From: Botryllus schlosseri
Lineage: Eukaryota
NCBI GenBank assembly: GCA_051294905.1
Contig: CM119372.1
Coordinates: 37,636,001-37,700,000, forward strand
Length of the DNA: 64,000 bases
Direction of reading: 5' to 3'
Shown here: positions 13,901 to 52,950 of the stretch, one piece after another
Layout: each line of letters begins with the position of its first letter
Numbering within the stretch: the first letter of the stretch is position 1
Made by a program: the position numbers and the translations under genes
Notes under the pieces: generated by a model
Told to the model about the DNA's origin: nothing
What the model saw: only the letters and a program-made list of their open reading frames with translations
Databases searched by the model: none

Positions 13901-14032
13901 GTAAGCCCCTCACGCTCTTCCTCTGGTTTGGTCCCAACGCATTCGCCCTCGACTACACCACGAATTCATGATCAGATACATTTCCATCAGGTCTTAATCA
14001 GCTAGACGCGGAAATGGTCATGATAATTGCTA

Positions 14033-14240
14033 CAGAGACCGACAAGCTGTAAAATGTGACTCATCAAAATTTTCTAGGGCAATATATCAGAATTCTTGAC
14101 GAAGCTCATATATATTATCGCTTACGCGATACCAAACAATTTGTTAACCGAAATTCATGAAGCTTACACAGCCTCACGAATTCTGATATACTGCGCTAGA
14201 AAAATTTGTTAAGTCATATTTTACAGCTTGTCGGTCTCTG
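14033..14240. repeat. Short foldback element
   Basis: CAGAGACCGACAAGCTGTAAAAT... and ...ATTTTACAGCTTGTCGGTCTCTG form inverted arms. Confidence 0.75.
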
Positions 14241-15380
14241 CTGTATAAAACACAGCGTGTGTAGGTTACGACAGCGAAAACGAAGTAACCCTGCTATATC
14301 CATCATATCAGTAATTCCCAAACGTTTTTTACACAAAGCCATCTGCCTCCTGGGCCGCAACTCAGGTATCAACGCCCCTCTAACCTTCACCTACTCGCGA
14401 CAAAAATTGTTTGTTTTAATACACCGACCCTACGCTATCGTGTCGACTTCGTGCGTTGATCTAATTCATTGACAGCCAGATATACGTTATTTACGCTATG
14501 TCAGAAACACATTTTGGAACATTTTTACGACATGCACGGTCAGTGAAGACGATTGTACAAGGAAGTATCTCTTTCATATCATCGTACTTCATTATGGTAT
14601 GATATGGGCTTAAAACTTCATCATCCTCGTTCTACGTGCATTTCATTATGTGCACATAACTTTCGCTCGATAGTTGTCAGTGGATAATTAGTATATTCGT
14701 TGTTTGATTTATTGTTTGGTTGGTTGGTTGGTTGGTTAGAATGTTATAAAACTCAATGTTGCATAACAATAAACATCTGCGGAGAGCATTGGTGACGTCT
14801 CCTGACCGCGGCCGCAAATGACGTGATTACATATTCATAAATATTACTTTGGTGTACAGAGAATGATATGAATTTACTGATTTTCCCAAACAGTGCGTCC
14901 ATGCTTCCTCTCATAACCCCTCCGTCTCTCAGCACCCCCAATCTCCAAATCTGTAGCTAGAACCCACTTCGAGGTCGACAGAGCCCCTAGGAACCACTGC
15001 ATTATATGATTATATGTCCTGTTGACCATTTTAATTACTGCCTGCCATCCTCGAACGACTTCATCGGACGAATTTTATTGACTTCATCATTCCTTACTCT
15101 GATCAGCCATTTTGCACGGAAAACTGAGGCGCAATCGATGCAGAAAATATATACTTTGTATTGACATGAATTCCACCAGGCAATATGTAAATCTAGGAAT
15201 ACGATGTAGATGTTCTTCAAATGATAAAATTTGGATTGTCACTTTCCCTAAAGGCGAAGATGTTCTAGCGGCGTAGCTTATTTAGCGTGCAAATTAACTT
15301 TAAACGGGTTGATCAGCGCAGTACGATGAGGTGAAAATGGAACACCAATTTTTCCGAAGAACAGTTCTTCAGAGAAATCT

Positions 15381-18300
15381 TCATTCGATATCAAACAGCT
15401 CCTCAAGCCTTTCCTCTGTTAAGTAAGGCAATAAAGTTAAATGAATGACAAGATTGTTAAGGGCAGTAATGTTATGTATGTCAATTACGAGTGATCTCGC
15501 GTAGAAAGAATGTTGTAATGTTCGTTGCTGAATGCTTAAGTTGCCGATTTTTTGTTAATGCAGTGGGATCATTTGTCCCAATCCACCAGAACTTAACAAT
15601 CGTGGATAGGAATGCATCGTTGCTTGTATGAGTTATTGCCAAGATAACAACGCTAATTTGATCATGACGTGGCAATAGTCAAAGAATAATATGCTTTTAC
15701 TCTTTTTGTTGTCAGTAATAAAACACATTCATGTATGACATATCAGCATGAAATAGCGTGAATAATTATAATGAACTTCATTGACACAGCGCGTGTGTTA
15801 AGATATTTGACTTCCAATGCGGAAAATCAGATCTCCATGCTAGGACTTATTCGAATAAACATGATTTGGATACCTAGAAAAATTTATCTTTCGGTGTACT
15901 TTAGTTTCGGATGCAGTTTTAAATTTGTATTTTCGAAACTTTATTTTATTCGCAGGAAATCAAACCAATTACAGTTGTTTAGTGCACATTTTATATCAAA
16001 CTAAGCTTGATATGACCATGCTAATGAGCAAATGGCTTCGTACGTTGGTTTCCGACTTCTCATGTCAATATAAATGAGCGATATCGTTTTATTATATCGT
16101 TTTAGAAATTAATATTTGCATTTACAACGAAATCTAAACTTTCGAAAGACTGCAAATTTTCTGTAGTCATAAACTTTACAGAGTCATGGAATTATTATTT
16201 CAACAATGTCGCATTTTGGCCGTACTTATTAAATTCCCGTCCAGAATAATCAGTCACGAGTTTACTGATGTGTTACTTGTTACTCACCAATGTCGCTTGA
16301 TGTCTCGATAATACTTCTCCGCTTTCTTCCCAAAGGCCACCATTTAGAACTAGGTCTTGTGGAGCCACTAATATGAAAATGAAAGTATTTATGCGCGGGT
16401 CTATCAATAAATGTAACACGTGAGTGGATATTGTTGAAAATAACGATTCCAATAACATATTTAGCAGTGATCTATTACGTTATAATCTTCCGTACCCCTG
16501 ATCTAGCAATCGTTCCAAAACATGTCAACTGTGACGAGGTATGTGAAGTACACTGCCATCGAAAATGCACATACAAAATGTTCATTTAAGGTGGCAAATG
16601 TGACAACAGCCTACTGTATCCCAGGGTCGTGGGCACTCATGTAAACTTATTGATATGATTCGACTTGACGAGTTCCGTTGATAAATGGATTAACGGACGT
16701 TAAGATATGTCAACTAGCTCATGACTCGAAGCATAGTGTCCTATATGGTGTGGACACAGAGAGACTTGACGGCTCATTGCATTTGGGTTACGTCATACTC
16801 TCTATTTGACCAAAGGCAACTTCACGGCCATTTTTGACCGGCTTGCCGAGCTGTAAATTCAGTAAAACGATCAATGAAAAGCTGCTGCTATACCGATTAC
16901 AAAAATATAAATTTCATTCTAATCATGGTCCTGGAACTCCCCAAAATCAGCCTAGAAATTTGCATTGTGATTGAGTTTTGGGATTGTGACGCCACAATTC
17001 AGTCTGGCAAAACGTGAGTGAAGCTGAGAAGAGAAAGCCAGACAGTCCTGTTGCGTCACACTAACAAAAGTCGATAACAATGCAAATTTCTAGGTTGGTT
17101 TTGGGGGGTGCCAGGACCATAAACAGAATAAAAATTATATTTTCGTAATCCGTATAGCAGCAGCTTTCCATCGCTTTCCATCGCTATCCGTTTTATTGAA
17201 TTTAGCGTTCGGCAAGCCGGTCAAAAATTGTCATAAAGTTGTCTTTGTTCAAATGGAAAGTAGGACGTAACCCAAATGCAGTGAACCGTTCCGACTCGCT
17301 GTGTCCACATCATATTATATGACACTATGCTCGAAGTAAACCTTAAGTTACAATACGCCATTAAGTGGGCGGTGTAGACCAGTGGTTAACCTTTTTTTCC
17401 CGCAGCGCTCCTTTTCGAAAATTTCCTAAGTCTGGCGCATGCCCATATTTTAAGGACGGTAGTAAAAACAAGGAGTAATAGTTCGCAATCCGGTAGGTCT
17501 TTTCGAGTTGGGACTTCACTATTGGAAATATCGTGAATCGCTCACCAGCACCACTCGACTAATTAACGCTATTGTAATTGTACGTGTTATATTCGGGATC
17601 AAATCAAGGTTGTTATAACAACCATCGGCTACAGGCTCATACCATCTGGTTCGAGTCCGGTGTTCACATCCCGAATTCACCTCGGCAACTGGCAATACGG
17701 GGACGTCAATTGTATCGAGTTATGTTTTATGGCCTTGTGCAACTAGTAACTTAACTTAGATAGTGATGAAGATCTTTGCTCACGTTGAGTTTAGTACTAC
17801 ACCCAGTTATTTATTACCTTTGACAAGAATGTATTCCAAACAAAGCGACTCATATTATATAAAGTTCATGTGATGTTGCGGGTCACAGCACTAAACAGTG
17901 GTATCATCCTCTATGATACGATGAGGAAGTATTTTGAAAATATAATTTCGTAGCTCTCAAATACAAAGAAATTCAGTTAACCATTTTGACCAAAAAGTTT
18001 CAAAGCATCTTTAATGTACAAATGGCTCTCACTTTCAAAAGTGTTACAGTGCCTCTTTCTTCGATTTCGACACGCTGTGCGCTGCGGGATAATACATCTA
18101 TTTCGACACATTTTTTGGAAAATAACCCGAGTATTGTATGTGGGAATTGGCGATCTAGAAGTACGAGCAAATATTTTTACGTGATTTATACATAATAAAC
18201 CAATGCGATCATGAAAGCATGTTGCAAACATTGACTGCACATATTTCGCGCGCAGTGCGACGAAAAATTTCGAGATTTGACAGATTTTGTCAAATGTTAA

Positions 18301-20081
18301 TTTGCCATGAGAACTGTATAATTGCATATAATTGCTACTGCACCCTCTACTGCGACGCCACCCCACCGACCACCATATATCGCCCCCTGAACATTTCCGT
18401 CCCCTTCAAAATCCAAATCGCGCCTGCGGGGAGCTGGCGACAAGGTTAAAAAACACTGATGCAGACTATATCGCTATTTTTGTACACGGTTAACTTCCAC
18501 TGTACGTACAACGTACATGCTGCCTATATATGCGCTAGAGTGACATGTGAGACCAACCGTGCATTCGATGTGAATCCAGATTTTACCGAGCCTTCAAGAC
18601 GGACATATAGTGCAGTGGTACGGTCGAGGGCTGCAGCACCAAATGGATGGCGATTTGGAATTCGACAGAACTATTTCCGAAAACATGGTAGGTTCAACTT
18701 CACTCCTCCTCGTCGTCAGATCGACGCAAGTCGTGTCTTACGAACTATACTTGAGCGACAACGGGGTAAATTCGGCAGAATCAAGAAAAGGAACATCGAT
18801 GTGGTGGTAAATCACCGAACGTCGTTAAAACACAACTATTATAAAAATCTGACTTGACTTAAGGTTAGGGTTACCATATTTTTGTTGCTCAAACTTCAGA
18901 CACCCTTCAGCGTTTACTAGTGGGCGTTTATATGAGGCATGGAAACATTGTCTGTTAATATGGGGCACCCTAGCGAAGCATTGTTTATGTACTATATACA
19001 TGAGTGGAGTGGAACATCTAGGTTCCGAATTAGGCAATATCTAATGTGAGCTCCAGTGATGGCTTGGGTATGCAACAGATTTCTTCACGAGCCAGATGAA
19101 ATCGTCTGTCGGGCCGTCCATATATTACTATAAAATGCATCAGCATAGGTTGCACATTTAATGGTTTTCAACCCTCTGTGGTCGCGAAAATGTGGTCAGC
19201 TTGCCAAACCTACTCTGGGCCTATTTTGGATGTTGATTACGTTCAACATCTTCGTGATCCCCAGAATAAAGGCGAGAACGGTTAAGAACCACTGTGTTTG
19301 ACTAAAGAATCAAAACGGCCTTAATCATCTCTAGGAATATACCGTTATCTTATAATTGCGATTACAATTAGCCTTATTTCAGTAAATGATGGTTATTTTA
19401 TTTATTTTTTATTTTATTGTTAACGAGGGCGGTGCCCATATCAAAATCAATATACGTTAGACTACATTGCGCGCATCACGAAATAAATTTCAAGTAGCAT
19501 AAATCTGCGTAAAAATAATCTTGTTTATATTGGTTTATGAAAAATTTTTGATCCTACTTAAAGCCTAAAAAAATCCGGTCAATTTGGCACATTTTTGAAA
19601 TTTCCCCTCCGACGCATTTTTTACATTGACATTCCGGATATGTCCGGGAATGTCCGGGAAAATCCCGCCGTGTGGGAATCCTACTCAAGGTCAATATTAC
19701 AATGTACTGACTGGAATTGACTCAAGTCATCTTGAAAATTTAATGAATTCACTTGAATAAAATCAATTTATGCGATGACTCAATATGACTTGTTGTCGAT
19801 GGTAGTGACTTGTTTCTAACACCAGGATACATCTCCATTCAATTGGTATGTTTAGCTCACTTTATGCAGCTAGTGATATTAAAGCGACATTGTGCACCCT
19901 ATGCTGTGATAGAAACCACAAGAATACACAGTGTTTGTTTACTCTACAGGTAATGTTCTTTGTCAACGAACACGGGAAATTCGGAATGTAGGAGTTACCT
20001 GTCTTGGCGTGTATTCTGGGCGTCTACTGCCATGACCACCAAGCAAAGGCACGCAAACAGCGCAGATACCTTCAAATTCAT
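15381..20081 (-). CDS. 65-aa secreted peptide precursor (neuropeptide- or AMP-like): signal + QNTRQDSGSTRPSSKWWPL-G-RKRR + acidic tail
   Basis: Exons 20081-19999 (MNLKVSALFACLCLVVMAVDAQNTRQD, donor AG|gtaact, phase 2), 16367-16288 (tttcatattag| S GSTRPSSKWWPLGRKRRSIIETSSDI G|gtgagt, phase 1), 15415-15381 (ttacttaacag| EERLEELFDIE*). 198 nt in frame. Signal peptide with V-D-A cleavage site, amidation Gly and furin-type RKRR. Confidence 0.8.
16732..17329. mobile_element. ~600-bp foldback (long-TIR) element
   Basis: Near end-to-end inverted repeat (CATAGTGTC...GGACACAG / CTGTGTCC...GACACTATG) with flanking direct repeat CTCGAAG; a second, interrupted copy lies at ~43143-45325. Confidence 0.85.
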
Positions 20082-23000
20082 CCCTTTTACGAGCAAGCTG
20101 TAAGTAGGCCTATTTATATCTGCTAAACGGTAAACGTAAAACAATTACACTAGCACTCTCATAGTTACCAGCAATACCTCATCCGTCGGAATGGAATAGC
20201 ATAAAGTAATTGCCTTTGTTTTAATTCGCGGCCTACGAAATTATGATGGTCAGTCGCAGATCGAAAGATGGTCACGGGATCATCAAAATATAGATCACGC
20301 TCGACTGTATGATCCATGGCGATCTTTCCAACTTGGGGACCATTCGTGGCAAATATAAGCCGTCACTTATGACTTGAGCTTGTGTTGTGATACCCAACTG
20401 AGCGTATAAGAGTTTGCGATCAGTCAGTCAATCACTATTGTCAGATCATCATATCGCCCAAATCAAGAATGCCATGACCGCATCTCTTTATGTATAGTAA
20501 ACGTAATTTGCAGTGACAAATCAACTTTAAACAGGATCATACGCTCCCAAATATACAATAACATGACTTTCACCTACCATACCACTCTGTATGGATTCAG
20601 TAGTAGAATTTATCAAAACCATTTCTGTATTTATACTAACGACAATCTCCCTTTTTCTGCTAACTATTGGGCAAAGAGTATGTAACTGTTTGATATTTCC
20701 ACGAAACATAATGGCTTTGCTATCAGATACATTTATTTCAAACTATGTAAAATAAGGTGTATTTCACTAAAATTGGTTCTGATTCTCCGAACTTAGAAGA
20801 TGTTATCAAACGTATGTAGCGGTGACGTGGGTTTTATTATTTGCTATTGCTATTAAGCAATTGGAATTGAAACTATAAACTTCTCCTCCACTCCCTTCTA
20901 ATACATGGAAGCATTGTTGAGGCGATTAGCATGTTGCAAAAGGAATTTGAGCGTATATTGTCATCGCGTTCCTACATCATAGCATCGCATAGGTCTACAT
21001 CACAAACTACATGCTTTGATCATGGGAACGCCACAGCGTCTAAAAAAGGGTCGATGTAGGAATGACAGCAACGTGGAATCCATGCAGCTCCTTATCCTTT
21101 TTTATTGCATAGAAGTTGATCATCTCATATAATTCAATTATCTCATTTTCATTATGTAGCAATATACCAAATACAACAAATAATGCAATGTATGTATATG
21201 TGCATGTACATTATGCTATATAAGCCTACTTATATCTACAAGTTCTGCATCATGATCATAGGGGTTCATTAGCTATGAATTTGCACTTTTTCGAGCACTC
21301 AAGTAGGTTAAGCCTACTTGCACTACTTACTCAAGTAGTGATGTGTTCAGAGGCCTTGTATTCCTACACACCATGTACTTAGATTTTAAGCCACATCATG
21401 GATGTGTTCGAACAATCTGACGCACGTATAGGAATTTTCAATAGCAGCACCTCCTACATGTATATGCAATTCACATCTTTTCGTAGTATTTAAAAACCAG
21501 GAAGAGCTGCTAGCGCTGGCACAATTAATTCACAAGTATACTTGTTAAATATTTATTAGTCCACAAACTGCGCCATAATTTATGGATTGATATTTGTCAT
21601 TGTTAGAATTCCATGAGTGGAAAATAAAGCAATCGGGTGATCTCTCGTAACTGATGTAGCGTCAAATTTTGCTAAGCAAAAACCAAGTTGTTACCTTCTG
21701 AATAGCGTGACCAAGTGCCATTATGATCGTATCGTCAAATAAGATCAAGGATCCATGGGATCTGTCAAAGAAAACATTTAATATCTGTATTTCAATTATA
21801 CTTTCGAAATTCTGGTACGACTTTCACGCTATCATAACATCGATATATCAGTTCCAATTAAATTGAACAATCATACATTTGTCGATCATTTTTCGTATCG
21901 GTTACATTTTCTATTTGGTGTAATTGAGGTCGGCGTCTATTCGCCAAAGTAACGAAGAAACCCCACTTACAAGGTTGCTTGAAGCAGTGTCTCTCAGGCA
22001 TTTCCGATCGCGTACCATTAATTTGTTTTGCTTGAATACGCTGCGTTCCAACTGTTTTTGAACGACTTACTTTACTGAAATGTACCATAATTGAATAGCC
22101 TTAACGTTATAAATATACCATAACAAACACAGAGGTCTCAAACACGCGGCCGTCGAGAGCATTTTGCGCGGCCAGCGACGACATTTTGAAATTTCAAGTA
22201 TTCGATAATATCTTCAAGTGCCATATATCTTCTTTGTATTTAGGAACTAAAAGTTCAGTCTGAAACTACAACAAAAACCAGAAATATCAACCAACCTCAC
22301 CATCACTTCGCTTTTAAAAGCTACCATGTGTTAGAAGATCAGCTATTACGTCAAATTTCTAGTTCATGATGATGGAACATGGCTTGTTGATAATTCGTTA
22401 CTGAACATTGTGGTTTGGCTTGTGGCGAAGTTTCGTAAAATTACTCGATTTTGGATTGACTGGGTGAGTAAATAAAAATACTCAGTCGGGTCAAACAGTG
22501 ACTTCGTAATCCAGACGCAACAATCTTTGAAACGATCATGAAGAATAGTAATATATCAAAAGGTTGTAGCTTATGCTGCGTAGGTATATGATCATCTGAA
22601 TAACGTCAGTGTGCAAACTATTAAGATTCTGAGGCCCCCGTGACATATAGTTGGTTACATTCTGGGTGTTGTTTGTTCTCTTTATCCATATCATCATCGG
22701 TGGCGAGTAAGGTAGTATAGTACGTTCCACAGCTGTAACACCAATGCATTGTTTGTCGATTGGACATTTCTATTCCAGGGGTTCTTGACGAGGGCTACGT
22801 AGACCCCGTCGAAGTACCAAGCACCACATCAGGGGTGCGAAATGCATTGTGAAATTAGGCCTAGTCCTATATGCTGTGGAATATTTTCTGGGCCAATTTA
22901 ATCAACTGGAAAATATTCGTCGCGCTACACGCGGTTTTATGTGAATGGGCTTTCTGATGTTAATATGTAGGTGCCATCAGAAACTGTGTTCAAAATGGAC

Positions 23001-43700: not shown

Positions 43701-46700
43701 CATTAGGATTAGTCTCAGTGCAACCTACCTTGAAATAATCTGATGTCCTGTTCAATGTTTTTTTGCTATTTTCAAACAAGTTTGGGGAAATTTGCCAGAA
43801 ATGTTAGAGACTCAACAACTGGAATGCGGATTCAAACTGGGCGCAAGACATACCATATCTATACTATTAGATCAGGGAAGGGCAACCTGTTGCTGTAGAA
43901 GGGAATTTGTACGACCGTCGACACCTAATTGAATTAGTATGTGTTGGCATCCGTGGACATGCAAATTGAAATTACGACTTCACTGCCGAATTTTTGAGAG
44001 ATTTTAATTCATCTTGAAATTTTCTTCACACTCCGCTCAATTCAACATAACTTGATTTTTCGATTTTGATATAGTAGCGCCCTTCTCACTCTGGGCCGGA
44101 ATCGTGTGCTCCTCACGAAAGAAATTTGTTTATGGTACATTTGGATGATTTTAATATATTTCGACTACCGATACAATCGACAATCCTGATCGGGGGTCGA
44201 GAAATAACAGCATGCAACCAAGTGACTAATAACATTTGGCCCACCCGAAGATGCATTGTCATTTATAACTTGCCCTACATTTTAAAATACACTCCCTCAA
44301 TGAACCCTACCTGTGTATCTGATCACATGGGCTAAGAGAGGATAAATATTTGATAATAATATGTGATACTGCTACTATTAATCACGGAATTCATTCGTGA
44401 ATCTGAAAAATTTTCGCGCTCAGCGTGTCAATAAACAATCCCAGCATCTATTCATAACATTGCGACTCGCGATTTCGGTACGTACAAAAGGCTTTTGCTA
44501 AAAGTATAATAGTCCGGATTCCAGAGTTCACCGGCAATGGATATGGACAGATTAGGTATTTCGCGTCCAGTTAGTTCATTACGGCTATGCCCTGGAATGC
44601 GGCCTTGGGCTACATAAGTAGGCTAATCAAAATGGGCCGTGATTAGCAAAAAGGTTGCCTACCTCTGTACTAGATGATGTGCTCTTTTAGACATGACGAA
44701 AAGTGTAGGGGGGGGGGGGGGGTCAGGGGGGGCGCAATATTTTCGACCATCCCCAAGGGGGGCGCGAGTCCAAAAAGGTTAAGAACCGCTGGGTTACGTC
44801 ATACTTTCCATTTGACGAAAATTCAACTTTACGGCCATTTTTGACCGGCTTGCCGACGGCAAAATTCGATAAAACGGGTATCAATGGAAAGCTGCTGCTG
44901 TACTGATTAGGAAAATATAAATTTTATTCTATTCATAGTCCTGCAACCCCCAAAAATCAGCCTAGTAATTTGCATTGTGTTCGAGTTTTTGCATTGTGAC
45001 GCAACAATTCTGTCTGGCAAAACGAGAGTGAAGCTGAGAAGAAAGAGCCAGACAGACCTGTTGCGTCACAATGACAAAACTCAATAACAATGAATACTTC
45101 TAGGCTGATTTCAGGGGTGCCAGGAATATGAACAGAATAAAATTTATATTTTTGTGATCAGTACATCAGCAGCTTTCCATTGATACCTGTTTTATTGGAT
45201 TTTGCGCTCGGCAAGCCGGTCGAAAATGGCCTTAAAGTTACCTTTGGTCAAATGGAAAGTATGACGTAACCCAAATGCAGTGAGCTGTTCATTCTCGCTG
45301 TGTCCACACCATATAGGACACTATGGTCGAACTATCCTCTGGTTGACAAAAAAGATTATCGCTCTATCAAATAAGCCGGACCTAAAGTGTGTAACAGTAT
45401 CTCGCCGGCTATCCGACAGTTGTCGAGCATGTCCACATTCAAGTCGAAATACAAGCAATTTCCGCTGAATGAATACTAGTCAGCCCTCACCATTTACCGG
45501 ACCACGACCTGACATATCGATCTCGCCATCCGTCGCTTGCCACTTCATATTATATTCTTTTCCTTTCATTGAGTGTGCATGCCTCCTCTTTACATCGCCC
45601 AGGCCCAGGTGGGTGTCTGATCTTAAAACTACTCCTAGTCGTTTCGGCATCTTCCTATCATTCATTGTATTGCAGTCTTGTGATGTTTTCAAGTGATGAA
45701 ATTTTATGAATAAACTTGAACTTGAGCTTGTGTCATATGACTTGGTTCGAGTCATGCAGAATGACTTGAGTACAAGTCGAGTCACCAAAAAATCGCGACT
45801 CTAGTCGACTTACGACTCGACTCATTACAACCCTGAAGCTTTATCAAATTATTCGAAAGTAACTGTAAATCGCGCGTAGGGTCGTGGTAACAGGTAAGGT
45901 GTTGATAGTTTTGAGGACGTGATTCGGTACTTACGTACAAATACGGTCCCTTGTCGTCATACCCAAACATAATAATGTCAGCATTCGTCATTCCATTTAC
46001 TTCTGAAAATCCTATGCCCATCCAACCGCGAGTCTGCCCAGATACCTGTTCGATAGACGGAAACATTGCGAACATAAATAAATGATACACATTGGTGGAG
46101 GTCTAATCAATAGCGTAGCCACGCTGAGTACTTTGACCAACTCTATGGTCTTCAAGATCAGTAGAAGTAGAGAAAATAGCCTTCCGAAACTTCGCGCGTT
46201 TCTGCAATTGAAGCGCCCAAAACTGTAGCTAATTTATAGGTGCGAGCGACCCCGATACGAATAGTAACTGCTCATGCCGAGCTCAAACGTAGCGATAGTT
46301 AAGCGTCTATCCACCTCGAACGTAATATTTCCGTCTGTAATGTTCCAATCTATCTTCATTCTCCCTGTTCCCGATGTGAAGCTCCTTTCAACATGTAATT
46401 CCATTTCTTCAACCTCTCCTCCCCCTTCAACTGGATCTTCCTCTCCTTCTCCTTCCTCGTCTGTACTATCCCCTTCTCCATCTTCGCCACCATGATCGTG
46501 ATCGCCGTGGTCAAGCTCCTCGCCTGCGAATGAATAACTTTGTGTTGCTACCGTTTACATTTGGTACTAGAAGTTATACAGATAGCCTATTCTGACCATA
46601 CATTGTTTGTGTTACTATTATATGCAACATGAAACCTGCATACAACGGGTTCGCATTGACGTTTACGCCACTTTTAATAAATACTTTTGGCCCAATTCTA

Positions 46701-51069: not shown

Positions 51070-52950
51070 AATATACAGTCACATATAGGCCTATATGCAA
51101 GACGAATTACATATATCCCATATATGTATATTGTATATCTATAATGGTGAAATAAGAAGTAAACGGTGCAAATGGTACCAACGGTATGGAAATGAAGAAA
51201 CAAAAACAAGACCAATCAGGTTGAGATTGCGAGAGATGCTTTATATAACGATATCTAAATTCATTTAAAGACATATTTTTGAATTCAGTTTGAGACTCGC
51301 CCCAGAGTTCTGGGCCTGAAAAGACTATAGATCTTTGAGCCATTGAAGACACACGTGGGATAAAGTAGTTGTTAGAGGATGCAGATCTGGTATTATATCT
51401 ATATGGACATCCTTTTAGAGAAGGCATCGGAAATATTGACATTATGGTATCTATGCATCAACTGAGAAATTTCTAAAGAGCACATTTTAGGAACTGGTAA
51501 TATGTTGAGGGATCTGTAAGCTTGCTGAACAGTGAACACTATCTGTGGCCCTAGGCGGCATATTGAGCGGATAGCTATATTTTGTCGCACTGACAAGTTA
51601 TGGAAGTACGTTTTGAAAATTGTGCCCAAAAAAATATTACCATATTAACGGGTGAGGATGAATTAGGGAAAAGTATAAAGGTTTTAGAGCTGATCTGGGA
51701 AGGAAACGAGATACCCGTGACAGCACACCACAAGCACGAGAAACTTTTGAAACTTTAATTTAATATGTGATTTTCAAGATTTATCATTGTCAAATTGTGT
51801 CCCTAGATATTTCACAGTGGAGGTTGGTTTCACAGTGATGCCATGTATAGTTATTGCAAAAGTGGGTGTCTGTCTGGGCGGTGTCTTATTGTTGCTAATC
51901 AACAGCTGAGATTTGAAAGGGTATATTAGTAGTTAATTGACATTCATCCAAGTGACAATGTTTCCATTTCAGAGTTGACTGTATGTTGGAGAGAAGCTAG
52001 GTCATAATTGCGGGCAAATAAGCACGCATCGTCTGCAAAGAGAGTCGTGTGGAACTTTGATGCATTTGGCAGATCATTAATGTACATTATAAATAGAATT
52101 GGTCCCAAAATTGAGCCTTGGGGAGCACCTGTCTCGATTTTTCCATAATGAAAGGAAGATGACATATGATGGTCAATGCACTGTGAGCGGTCTGAAATAT
52201 GAGATCGAATTAATTCTAGAGATTTACCTAATATACCGTAACGCTGTAATTTTTAAAGTAATAAAGAATCCACGCCAAATGCTTTTCTCAAATCCAAAAA
52301 TATTCTACAGCAAACATCGTTAGAGCCAAAAGTTGAATAATGTTTAGTAATGAGATGAGTAATGCCTTGATTTGTGTCGGTGTTATATGGAAAGCCAAAT
52401 TGGCTACTCGATATCAGGGAATTTCGTTCAAAGAATGTCACCAATCTTTCAAAGATGAGTTTCTCATATAAAATAGAAATACAAGAAAGAACTGAGATTC
52501 GCCTGTAACTATTCATGTCGGTTTTAGCTCCAAACCTGTGAACAGGAATAATTTTAGCAATTTTCAAAGCAGTTGGGAAAATTGACAATTTTATACATTG
52601 GTTGAAATAATGGGCTAACGTGGGCCCAATGGCAGGAATGAGAGTTTTTAGTAGTATGGTAGAAATTTTATCATGACGCTCCGCTTTTCCTGTTTTCATA
52701 TCTCTAACTATTTTATAGATCTCTTCCTCACTTTTGTCAGTTATAAAAAAAATAACGAATCTATGCATGACCTGCAGTAAACCAATGGGGATATATGCGG
52801 GTGATTGACACAAGAAGAAGCCAATTTGTAGCCTATCGAAACGAAATGTTCATTGAGTGACTGTGAGATACTGCAAGGTTCACTATCTTGGTGCCGTCGT
52901 CTTTGATGATATTGAGTGGCAAGTTTGTGTCGGTACGTTTTACATTAATC
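51070..52950 (-). mobile_element. Decayed CR1/L2-type LINE, 5'-truncated (RT domain and C-terminus)
   Basis: FPTALKIAKIIPVH...YRRISVLS..SILYEK...QFGF...IFLDLRKAF, GAPQGSILGPILFIMYINDLP...LFADDA, YNTRSAS...FSGPELW; several frameshifts. Confidence 0.9.

Follow-up and report, generated by a model that had tools for sequence, protein, structure and literature searches.

Precursors of the GnRH/AKH/corazonin type place their peptide directly after the signal sequence, with Gln at its N-terminus and Gly plus a basic site at its C-terminus, and also carry an associated peptide; the signature of the GnRH family in tunicates is pyroglutamate (pGlu)-His-Trp-Ser. Tunicates are closer to the vertebrates than any other living group, and a catalog of the peptides and receptors specific to their lineage is being built; among them, Ciona has species-specific neuropeptides without likeness to other peptides, namely Ci-LF, Ci-YFV/L and Ci-NTLP (PMC6475428). 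The precursors of Ci-LF and Ci-YFV/L each yield several related peptides, which mass spectrometry detected in the neural complex (PMC12441681). Ascidian antimicrobial precursors such as Ci-MAM and Ci-PAP consist of a signal, a core and an anionic, helix-prone C-terminal propiece (PMC7387483), and section 5 of that source gives a C-terminal anionic helix for 17 of 22 Ciona candidates. As described there, an Arg run marks the core/tail boundary in several of the candidates (Gly and then RRRR in Ci-MAM-D and -E), and in styelins and clavanins the cut falls before D or DD and not at a basic site. Botryllin is a 37-residue peptide of charge +11.2 from a 158-residue precursor (PMC9966394). Here we describe a gene on the minus strand of a 64,000-nucleotide stretch of Botryllus schlosseri DNA (contig CM119372.1 of assembly GCA_051294905.1, positions 37,636,001 to 37,700,000; the whole stretch is called the window, and positions are counted from its first letter) that is joined from three small exons and encodes a 65-residue candidate peptide precursor. 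An earlier note made from the letters alone had proposed the gene; its spliced-leader (SL) 5′ end and its single-copy status are new here.

The in-frame joining of three small exons that the note had drawn is reproduced by coordinates, as 20081-19999, 16367-16288 and 15415-15381 add up to 198 nt, or 65 codons plus TGA (Table 1). The coding part of exon 1 (83 nt) is followed by the donor GTAACT and exon 2 (80 nt) by GTGAGT, and both acceptors are pyrimidine-rich and end in AG, exon 2 starting after ...TATTAG and exon 3 (15415) after ...CTTAACAG. The coding shares of the exons amount to 27, 26 and 11 codons and sit in open frames of at most 56 amino acids, which is why an open reading frame (ORF) list with a 60-residue floor missed the gene, as the note had remarked.

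The exon chain is transcribed and spliced, and is no chance in-frame alignment. We compared four of the 24 runs with the same species label, among which X5, X6, X8 and X14-X24 are single-cell runs, on positions 14700-20400: X7, raw-read bulk RNA from another animal; X10, from the same study as X7; X11; and X1, seen as a Logan contig. Both junctions that the note had named as a check (19999/16367 and 16288/15415) are found in the X7 reads and in the X1 contig. The joint 16367|19999 is crossed by 74 X7 reads and by a further 36 in an allelic variant form, and the joint 15415|16288 by 92 and a further 32; the allelic reads differ by one letter beside the junction, which corresponds to D27E (36 reads) and E55D (32 reads). 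The skipped stretches of both joints end CT..AC on the plus strand, that is GT..AG on the minus strand, and this orientation, together with the tunicate leader that the 5′ end carries, fixes the strand as minus. The X1 contig (490 nt) spans 20121-19999, 16367-16288 and 15415-15135, with 0 mismatches over 484 nt. No other joint with at least 3 reads is present in the 5.7 kb compared, except for two 3-read joints of the opposite strand inside exon 1, and the gene therefore has three exons. With 1305 locus reads among 12.9 million, X7 covers the exons at a depth of ∼100-170, far above the ∼1-3 of X10 and X11, so expression is strong and sample-specific.

Within the reconstructed 484-nt mRNA the first ATG opens the 65-residue frame, and no other sense ORF is as long (the others have 23 and 18 residues). 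The start ATG lies 38 nt past the spliced leader and has a purine at –3, the 5′ untranslated region (UTR) contains no upstream ATG, and the genomic frame upstream of the start holds an in-frame stop. An 87-residue antisense frame of the mRNA was rejected, as the splice sites are oriented the opposite way. At the 3′ end the X7 depth falls from ∼135 at 15189 to 10 at 15144 and to 0 in the bin 14891-15081, and the nearest canonical AATAAA (15079-15074) lies beyond the X7 coverage of the transcript end. We regard it as practically certain that the three-exon gene with its 65-codon frame is real.

Table 1. Position of the gene, its repeats and the coding changes seen in RNA; for the coding changes, reads with the change over all reads at the site are given unless stated otherwise
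Feature	Positions or precursor part	Strand	Description	Basis or reads
Spliced-leader AG acceptor	20120..20121	-	outron upstream	X7 leader reads and X1 contig stop
Exon 1	19999..20119	-	5′ UTR 20119-20082; ATG 20081; signal codons 20081-20019; 6 core codons + 2 nt	
Intron 1	16368..19998	-	3631 nt; GT..AG; phase 2	joint 16367|19999
Exon 2	16288..16367	-	remaining core to 16331; Gly-Arg-Lys-Arg-Arg 16330-16316; start of acidic tail	
Intron 2	15416..16287	-	872 nt; GT..AG; phase 1; unique sequence	joint 15415|16288
Exon 3	15135..15415	-	last 11 codons; TGA 15383-15381; 3′ UTR ∼246 nt; transcript end near 15135	
Foldback (MITE-like) repeat, intron 1	16743-17315	.	573 bp; two nested inverted-repeat pairs, 83% complementary	
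Dispersed repeat, intron 1	∼17372-18469	.	∼1.1 kb; adjoins foldback element	
A10V	signal peptide			X7 187/188; X11 2/2
A18A, synonymous	signal peptide			X7 217/217; X10 1/1; X11 3/3
D27E	core			X7 36/110 joint reads; X10 1, X11 2 joint reads, none of the reference form
P39L	core		WWPL to WWLL	X7 90/263; X10 2/2; X11 6/6
S52N	acidic tail			X7 158/219; X10 0/2; X11 0/4
E55D	acidic tail			X7 32/124 joint reads; X10 2, X11 2 joint reads, none of the reference form
L61V	acidic tail			X7 163/255; X10 0/2; X11 0/2

The 5′ end of the mRNA is formed by trans-splicing. In 45 X7 reads the match to the window breaks off at 20106, and the letters beyond this point are 23 nt foreign to the window, followed by the 7 nt that come after the AG at 20121-20120. 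The foreign 23 nt are part of the 25-nt ‘Chordata 1’ spliced-leader consensus listed in Table 1 of PMC3795323, a leader common to seven chordate species according to that source. A 21-nt leader motif identical to this consensus occurs 513 times in the genome, versus 0 times for a reversed control, and is not present in the 64-kb window. The leader on X7 reads at the AG 20121-20120 means that the mRNA is SL trans-spliced and that exon 1 starts at 20119. An X7 allele has lost 6 nt of the 5′ UTR just past the first 7 nt of exon 1, and the loose end at 20106, considered as an allele of the upstream DNA, was rejected as such because it consists of the spliced leader plus this deletion. The X1 contig breaks off at precisely 20121, the position at which leader and genome part, and we infer that this stop is a graph branch between the leader and the genomic forms. 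A TATA-like TATAAATA at ∼20117 was rejected as a promoter box since it lies inside the mature mRNA; with exon 1 trans-spliced at 20119 the promoter is farther upstream. No reads cover 20239-20400.

The 513 copies of the spliced-leader motif are scattered over the chromosomes and form no single tandem array. At six of these loci the flanks are unlike one another, with T before the motif in 6/6, ATT in 5/6 and GT after it in 3/6, and a hairpin-like CTGGACC...GGTC motif follows 60-80 nt downstream in 4/6. The dispersed copies could be genes for the SL RNA, retro-copies that arose from trans-spliced RNAs, or a repeat derived from the SL.

The assembly contains one copy of the gene. Across its 495.5 Mb in 219 contigs, where only the best candidates were scored and diverged short exons may escape, exon 1 as protein, exon 1 as DNA, exon 2 as protein and exon 3 as DNA each returned one match, the gene itself. 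A pattern made of the end of exon 1 and its donor, with up to 2 mismatches allowed, likewise occurred once in the assembly, at the gene itself (its control also gave 1), and blastn and tblastn of the exons against the window returned self matches only.

The layout that the note had described, with leader, post-signal Gln, Gly-RKRR and acidic tail, is present in the spliced product, and we consider this product very probably a secreted precursor. A signal of 21 residues is followed by a core of 19 that starts with Gln and ends in WWPL, by Gly, by RKRR and by a tail of 20. Read heuristically, the signal has K4, a 15-residue hydrophobic core, V-D-A at –3 to –1 and a grand average of hydropathy (GRAVY) of +1.86, and the favored signal cleavage site is predicted to be V-D-A|Gln, after residue 21. 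The core has an isoelectric point (pI) of 10.8, a charge of +1.8 at pH 7, a GRAVY of –1.74, an Eisenberg hydrophobic moment of 0.25 and a mean hydrophobicity of –0.39; it contains two Pro and one Gly, polar residues occupy 13 of its first 14 positions, and its hydrophobic patch is confined to the last four residues. Its charge, its low moment and its negative mean hydrophobicity exclude a cationic amphipathic helix. The tail holds 8 D/E in 20 residues, the count given in the note, with a pI of 4.05, a charge of –7.5 and a hydrophobic moment of 0.37. As side observations, a second copy of the terminal Glu-Glu-Leu-Phe codons of exon 3 (15348-15400, minus strand) follows ∼34 nt farther on, in the 3′ UTR, whose start also contains a short palindrome.

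A Gly before R-X-K/R-R, here Gly41-Arg-Lys-Arg-Arg directly C-terminal to the core, is a substrate for convertase cleavage, carboxypeptidase trimming and amidation by peptidylglycine alpha-amidating monooxygenase, and an exposed N-terminal Gln cyclizes. In the processing that we propose, signal peptidase would cut after V-D-A between residues 21 and 22, a furin- or prohormone-convertase-type enzyme would cut after RKRR, a carboxypeptidase would remove the basic residues, and the monooxygenase would use Gly41 to amidate Leu40, with the exposed Gln cyclizing to pGlu. This would release two products, a polar peptide of 19 residues with the end Trp-Trp-Pro/Leu-Leu-amide and, as a free piece, the acidic, helix-prone tail of 20 residues. 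That cleavage and amidation take place as drawn appears somewhat better than an even prospect.

On these grounds we favor, tentatively and as something short of an even chance for the chain as a whole, a single-copy, SL trans-spliced gene that would encode a lineage-restricted, fast-evolving signaling peptide of neural or endocrine type, and we lean toward this over a defense or effector role and over an orphan gene that is functionless or differently processed. What speaks for a signaling role is the hydrophilic, non-amphipathic nature of the core, in which the predicted amidated C-terminal motif is the one hydrophobic feature. The architecture is that of the GnRH/AKH/corazonin-type precursors; unlike in these, the predicted mature peptide, at 19 residues, is longer and has its codons divided by an intron, and the core starts Gln-Asn-Thr-Arg and so lacks the pGlu-His-Trp-Ser signature, and we do not claim membership. 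Like the precursors of Ci-LF, Ci-YFV/L and Ci-NTLP (PMC6475428), this one is small, predicted to be secreted and, by the searches made, confined to tunicates. In contrast to Ci-LF and Ci-YFV/L as characterized in PMC12441681, the gene encodes one candidate peptide, which shows no sequence likeness to theirs.

Variation between animals bears on how the peptide is to be read, and in the following the variant counts against the assembly refer to the 40 rows listed of 76 in X7. Eighteen of the variants listed lie in the 246-nt 3′ UTR, 3 and the 6-nt deletion in the 38-nt 5′ UTR, and 7 in the 198-nt coding sequence (CDS), where they comprise 5 variant rows and 2 junction variants. Among the variants listed the density in the CDS is about half that in the UTRs, which suggests some constraint, and none falls in the 15 nt of the Gly-RKRR codons. 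No stop or frameshift occurs among the 7 CDS variants, and the two indels seen are both in UTRs. Every X10 and X11 read over the respective sites has E27, L39 and D55; the mixture in X7, set against this uniformity, requires at least 3 haplotypes, of which WWPL is one allelic form. The WWPL 19-mer of the note is thus present as a predicted core and is no fixed peptide, P39L turning its end into WWLL and D27E altering its interior. A common haplotype combines WWLL with E27 and D55.

Searches for relatives used single exons padded with intron-coded residues as protein queries, which have low sensitivity, so that their blanks are weak evidence. The exon-2 frame (42 residues) and the exon-1 frame (40 residues) gave no candidate in a homologous-protein search, and the exon-2 frame against longer proteins gave 1 candidate, with none scored. 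HMMER against 1.84 billion representatives returned 2 matches, which were rejected as repetitive translations resting partly on intron-coded residues, and the ESM Atlas gave no usable match. Two metagenome loci reached with the 8-residue pattern WWPLGRKR were rejected as chance: one match (L012) lies inside a 232-residue bacterial-type ORF, the other (L011) inside an uninterrupted open frame of similar sequence, and neither has a signal peptide or an acidic tail around it. A literature search with KWWPL, WWPLG, QNTRQD and WWPL-amide forms, which did not cover the supplementary tables of ascidian peptidomics papers, returned one unrelated engineering paper. Pfam has no match for the exons or for ORFs in or around the gene, and none of its families, nor any entry of the protein databases searched with these weak single-exon queries, claims the protein, in agreement with the note, which had recognized no known peptide family.

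A number of observations weigh against a signaling peptide processed as proposed. With regard to processing, cleavage at an alternative (–3,–1) signal site, behind residue 18, would give a product whose N-terminus is not Gln, and RKRR is equally a site for furin in the constitutive secretory pathway. The change P39L falls in the C-terminal motif itself (34% of the X7 reads, all 8 X10 and X11 reads) and D27E also lies inside the core, so the core and its predicted amidated motif lack the within-species conservation expected of regulatory peptides. Six of the 7 CDS variants are non-synonymous, near the neutral expectation, and with 6 non-synonymous changes to 1 synonymous it does not follow that the peptide is under purifying selection. 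Furthermore, at each exon boundary 34-55 X7 reads enter versions of exon 2 or 3 that are more than 10% unlike the window. Translated by hand, the consensus of these versions has a core that differs after the first ∼13 residues and a different tail end; its strings have an agreement of 0.53-0.63 and could each be a mixture. For the divergent exon 2, a 24-nt piece of the consensus has no occurrence in the assembly with up to 3 mismatches, and the divergent versions may be either divergent alleles or copies absent from the assembly. No relatives were found in protein databases, metagenomes or the literature, a scope that does not extend to related tunicate genomes, and an acidic helical tail is typical of ascidian antimicrobial precursors (PMC7387483, section 5). 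Of all these points, the common Pro/Leu polymorphism in the motif, taken with the fast change of the protein, is the main argument against a classical neuropeptide.

The alternative that survives best is that the gene encodes a host-defense or effector precursor of blood cells or epithelia, whose acidic propiece masks or sorts the core and whose sequence is under diversifying selection; we consider this rather unlikely. At 65 residues the precursor belongs in the 50-100-residue secreted class of ascidian antimicrobial precursors (PMC7387483, section 5), and it shares with Ci-MAM, Ci-PAP and most of the Ciona candidates of that source the order of signal, core and anionic, helix-prone C-terminal propiece; the tail charge of –7.5 falls in the –10 to –3 window given there for proregions. 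The boundary of Gly and basic residues also recalls the Arg runs of that source, in particular the Gly plus RRRR of Ci-MAM-D and -E. However, the precursor carries the basic site RKRR, unlike styelins and clavanins, which are cut before D or DD in the account of PMC7387483. Of the resemblance to clavanin and styelin precursors drawn in the note, the acidic tail stands and the rest does not, the core being non-amphipathic. Indeed the core differs from ascidian antimicrobial peptides in failing the criterion of a cationic amphipathic alpha-helix, as its charge, hydrophobic moment and mean hydrophobicity, its two Pro and one Gly and its polar first 14 residues all indicate, and botryllin (PMC9966394) is by contrast far larger and more basic. 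The predicted amidated end is Trp-rich, which would suit a defense peptide. So would the high protein polymorphism (6 of 7 CDS variants) with its more divergent transcript versions and the very high mRNA level in one bulk sample; on the other hand, the gene is single-copy in the assembly and belongs to no gene family there, and no protein sequence match was obtained with the single-exon queries. We also saw no sequence similarity to ascidian antimicrobial precursors, for which two published Ciona signal-peptide consensuses were compared by eye.

A bolder version, which we hold to be doubtful, is that the gene is the founder of a new tunicate family of pGlu/amidated signaling peptides with an orphan receptor of its own, or a hypervariable effector with a conserved leader and tail and a diversifying core.

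That this is a young orphan gene, with no fixed processed form or selected function or with the acidic 20-mer as the active part, and with hormone-like marks that are partly coincidental, appears unlikely. The near-neutral look of the non-synonymous to synonymous ratio is in line with such a gene, but the frame is intact in every readable haplotype, variants are about half as dense in the CDS as in the UTRs, and indels are confined to the latter. In one class of X7 reads (55 reads) the two Glu-Glu-Leu-Phe copies of exon 3 seem to be joined, which would replace the last residues of this exon and, with the stop codon gone, make the acidic tail longer; this would fit a product whose form is not fixed. 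An orphan origin is also consistent with the absence of homologues in the searches made and with a gene-poor, repeat-rich neighborhood, where 1 of 19 long open frames has a Pfam match, a weak one, but it sits poorly with strong, regulated expression and with the occurrence of a signal peptide, a post-signal Gln and Gly plus a perfect R-X-K/R-R together within 45 residues. Finally, a non-coding or mis-framed transcript with an untranslated 65-codon frame, for which the shortness of the ORF speaks, is highly improbable for a frame that opens at the first ATG, 38 nt past the leader, where –3 is a purine and no ATG lies upstream, that is the longest sense ORF and encodes a textbook hydrophobic leader, and whose variants include no stops or frameshifts.

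Returning to the signaling reading, if it is true and the gene represents a new signaling family, the natural Pro/Leu alleles at the pharmacophore would provide a ready structure-activity pair. Whichever its role, the precursor is undescribed by the searches made and gives peptidomics an exact target in the form of two predicted allelic masses, and it can feed receptor de-orphanization and antimicrobial screening. It also illustrates that small multi-exon peptide genes slip past ORF-based scans. The gain is incremental. Ascidians can be expected to have secreted peptide genes that are orphans, and no new mechanism is indicated.

The introns had been described in the note as filled with miniature inverted-repeat transposable elements (MITEs), which applies to about half of intron 1, where the foldback element and the ∼1.1-kb dispersed repeat lie, and not to intron 2 or to 16368-16742, whose sole genome match is in each case the gene itself. 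The foldback element has at least 3434 first-look candidates in the genome, of which the best 40 gave 86 matches, mostly of 74-87% identity and on both strands. A second copy lies in the window at 44790-45314 (83% identity). The dispersed repeat, located as query positions ∼57-1154 of 17316-19998, has at least 6195 first-look candidates, with identities of 72-81% among the best 40 that were scored, and its open frames (17977-18405 on the minus strand and 18159-18449 on the plus strand) have no Pfam match.

The neighborhood of the gene is gene-poor and repeat-rich. No Rfam family was found in 14000-21500, and the one Pfam match among the 19 long open frames elsewhere in the window is a weak reverse-transcriptase fragment. 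This RVT_1 fragment (52253-52849 on the minus strand, 198 residues) scores 26.6 bits versus a Pfam cut-off of 29.6, and its open frame probably represents the remains of a retroelement. About 0.9 kb downstream of the gene an inverted repeat at 14033-14240, with 67-nt arms that are 90% complementary and a 74-nt spacer, is possibly another small foldback element.

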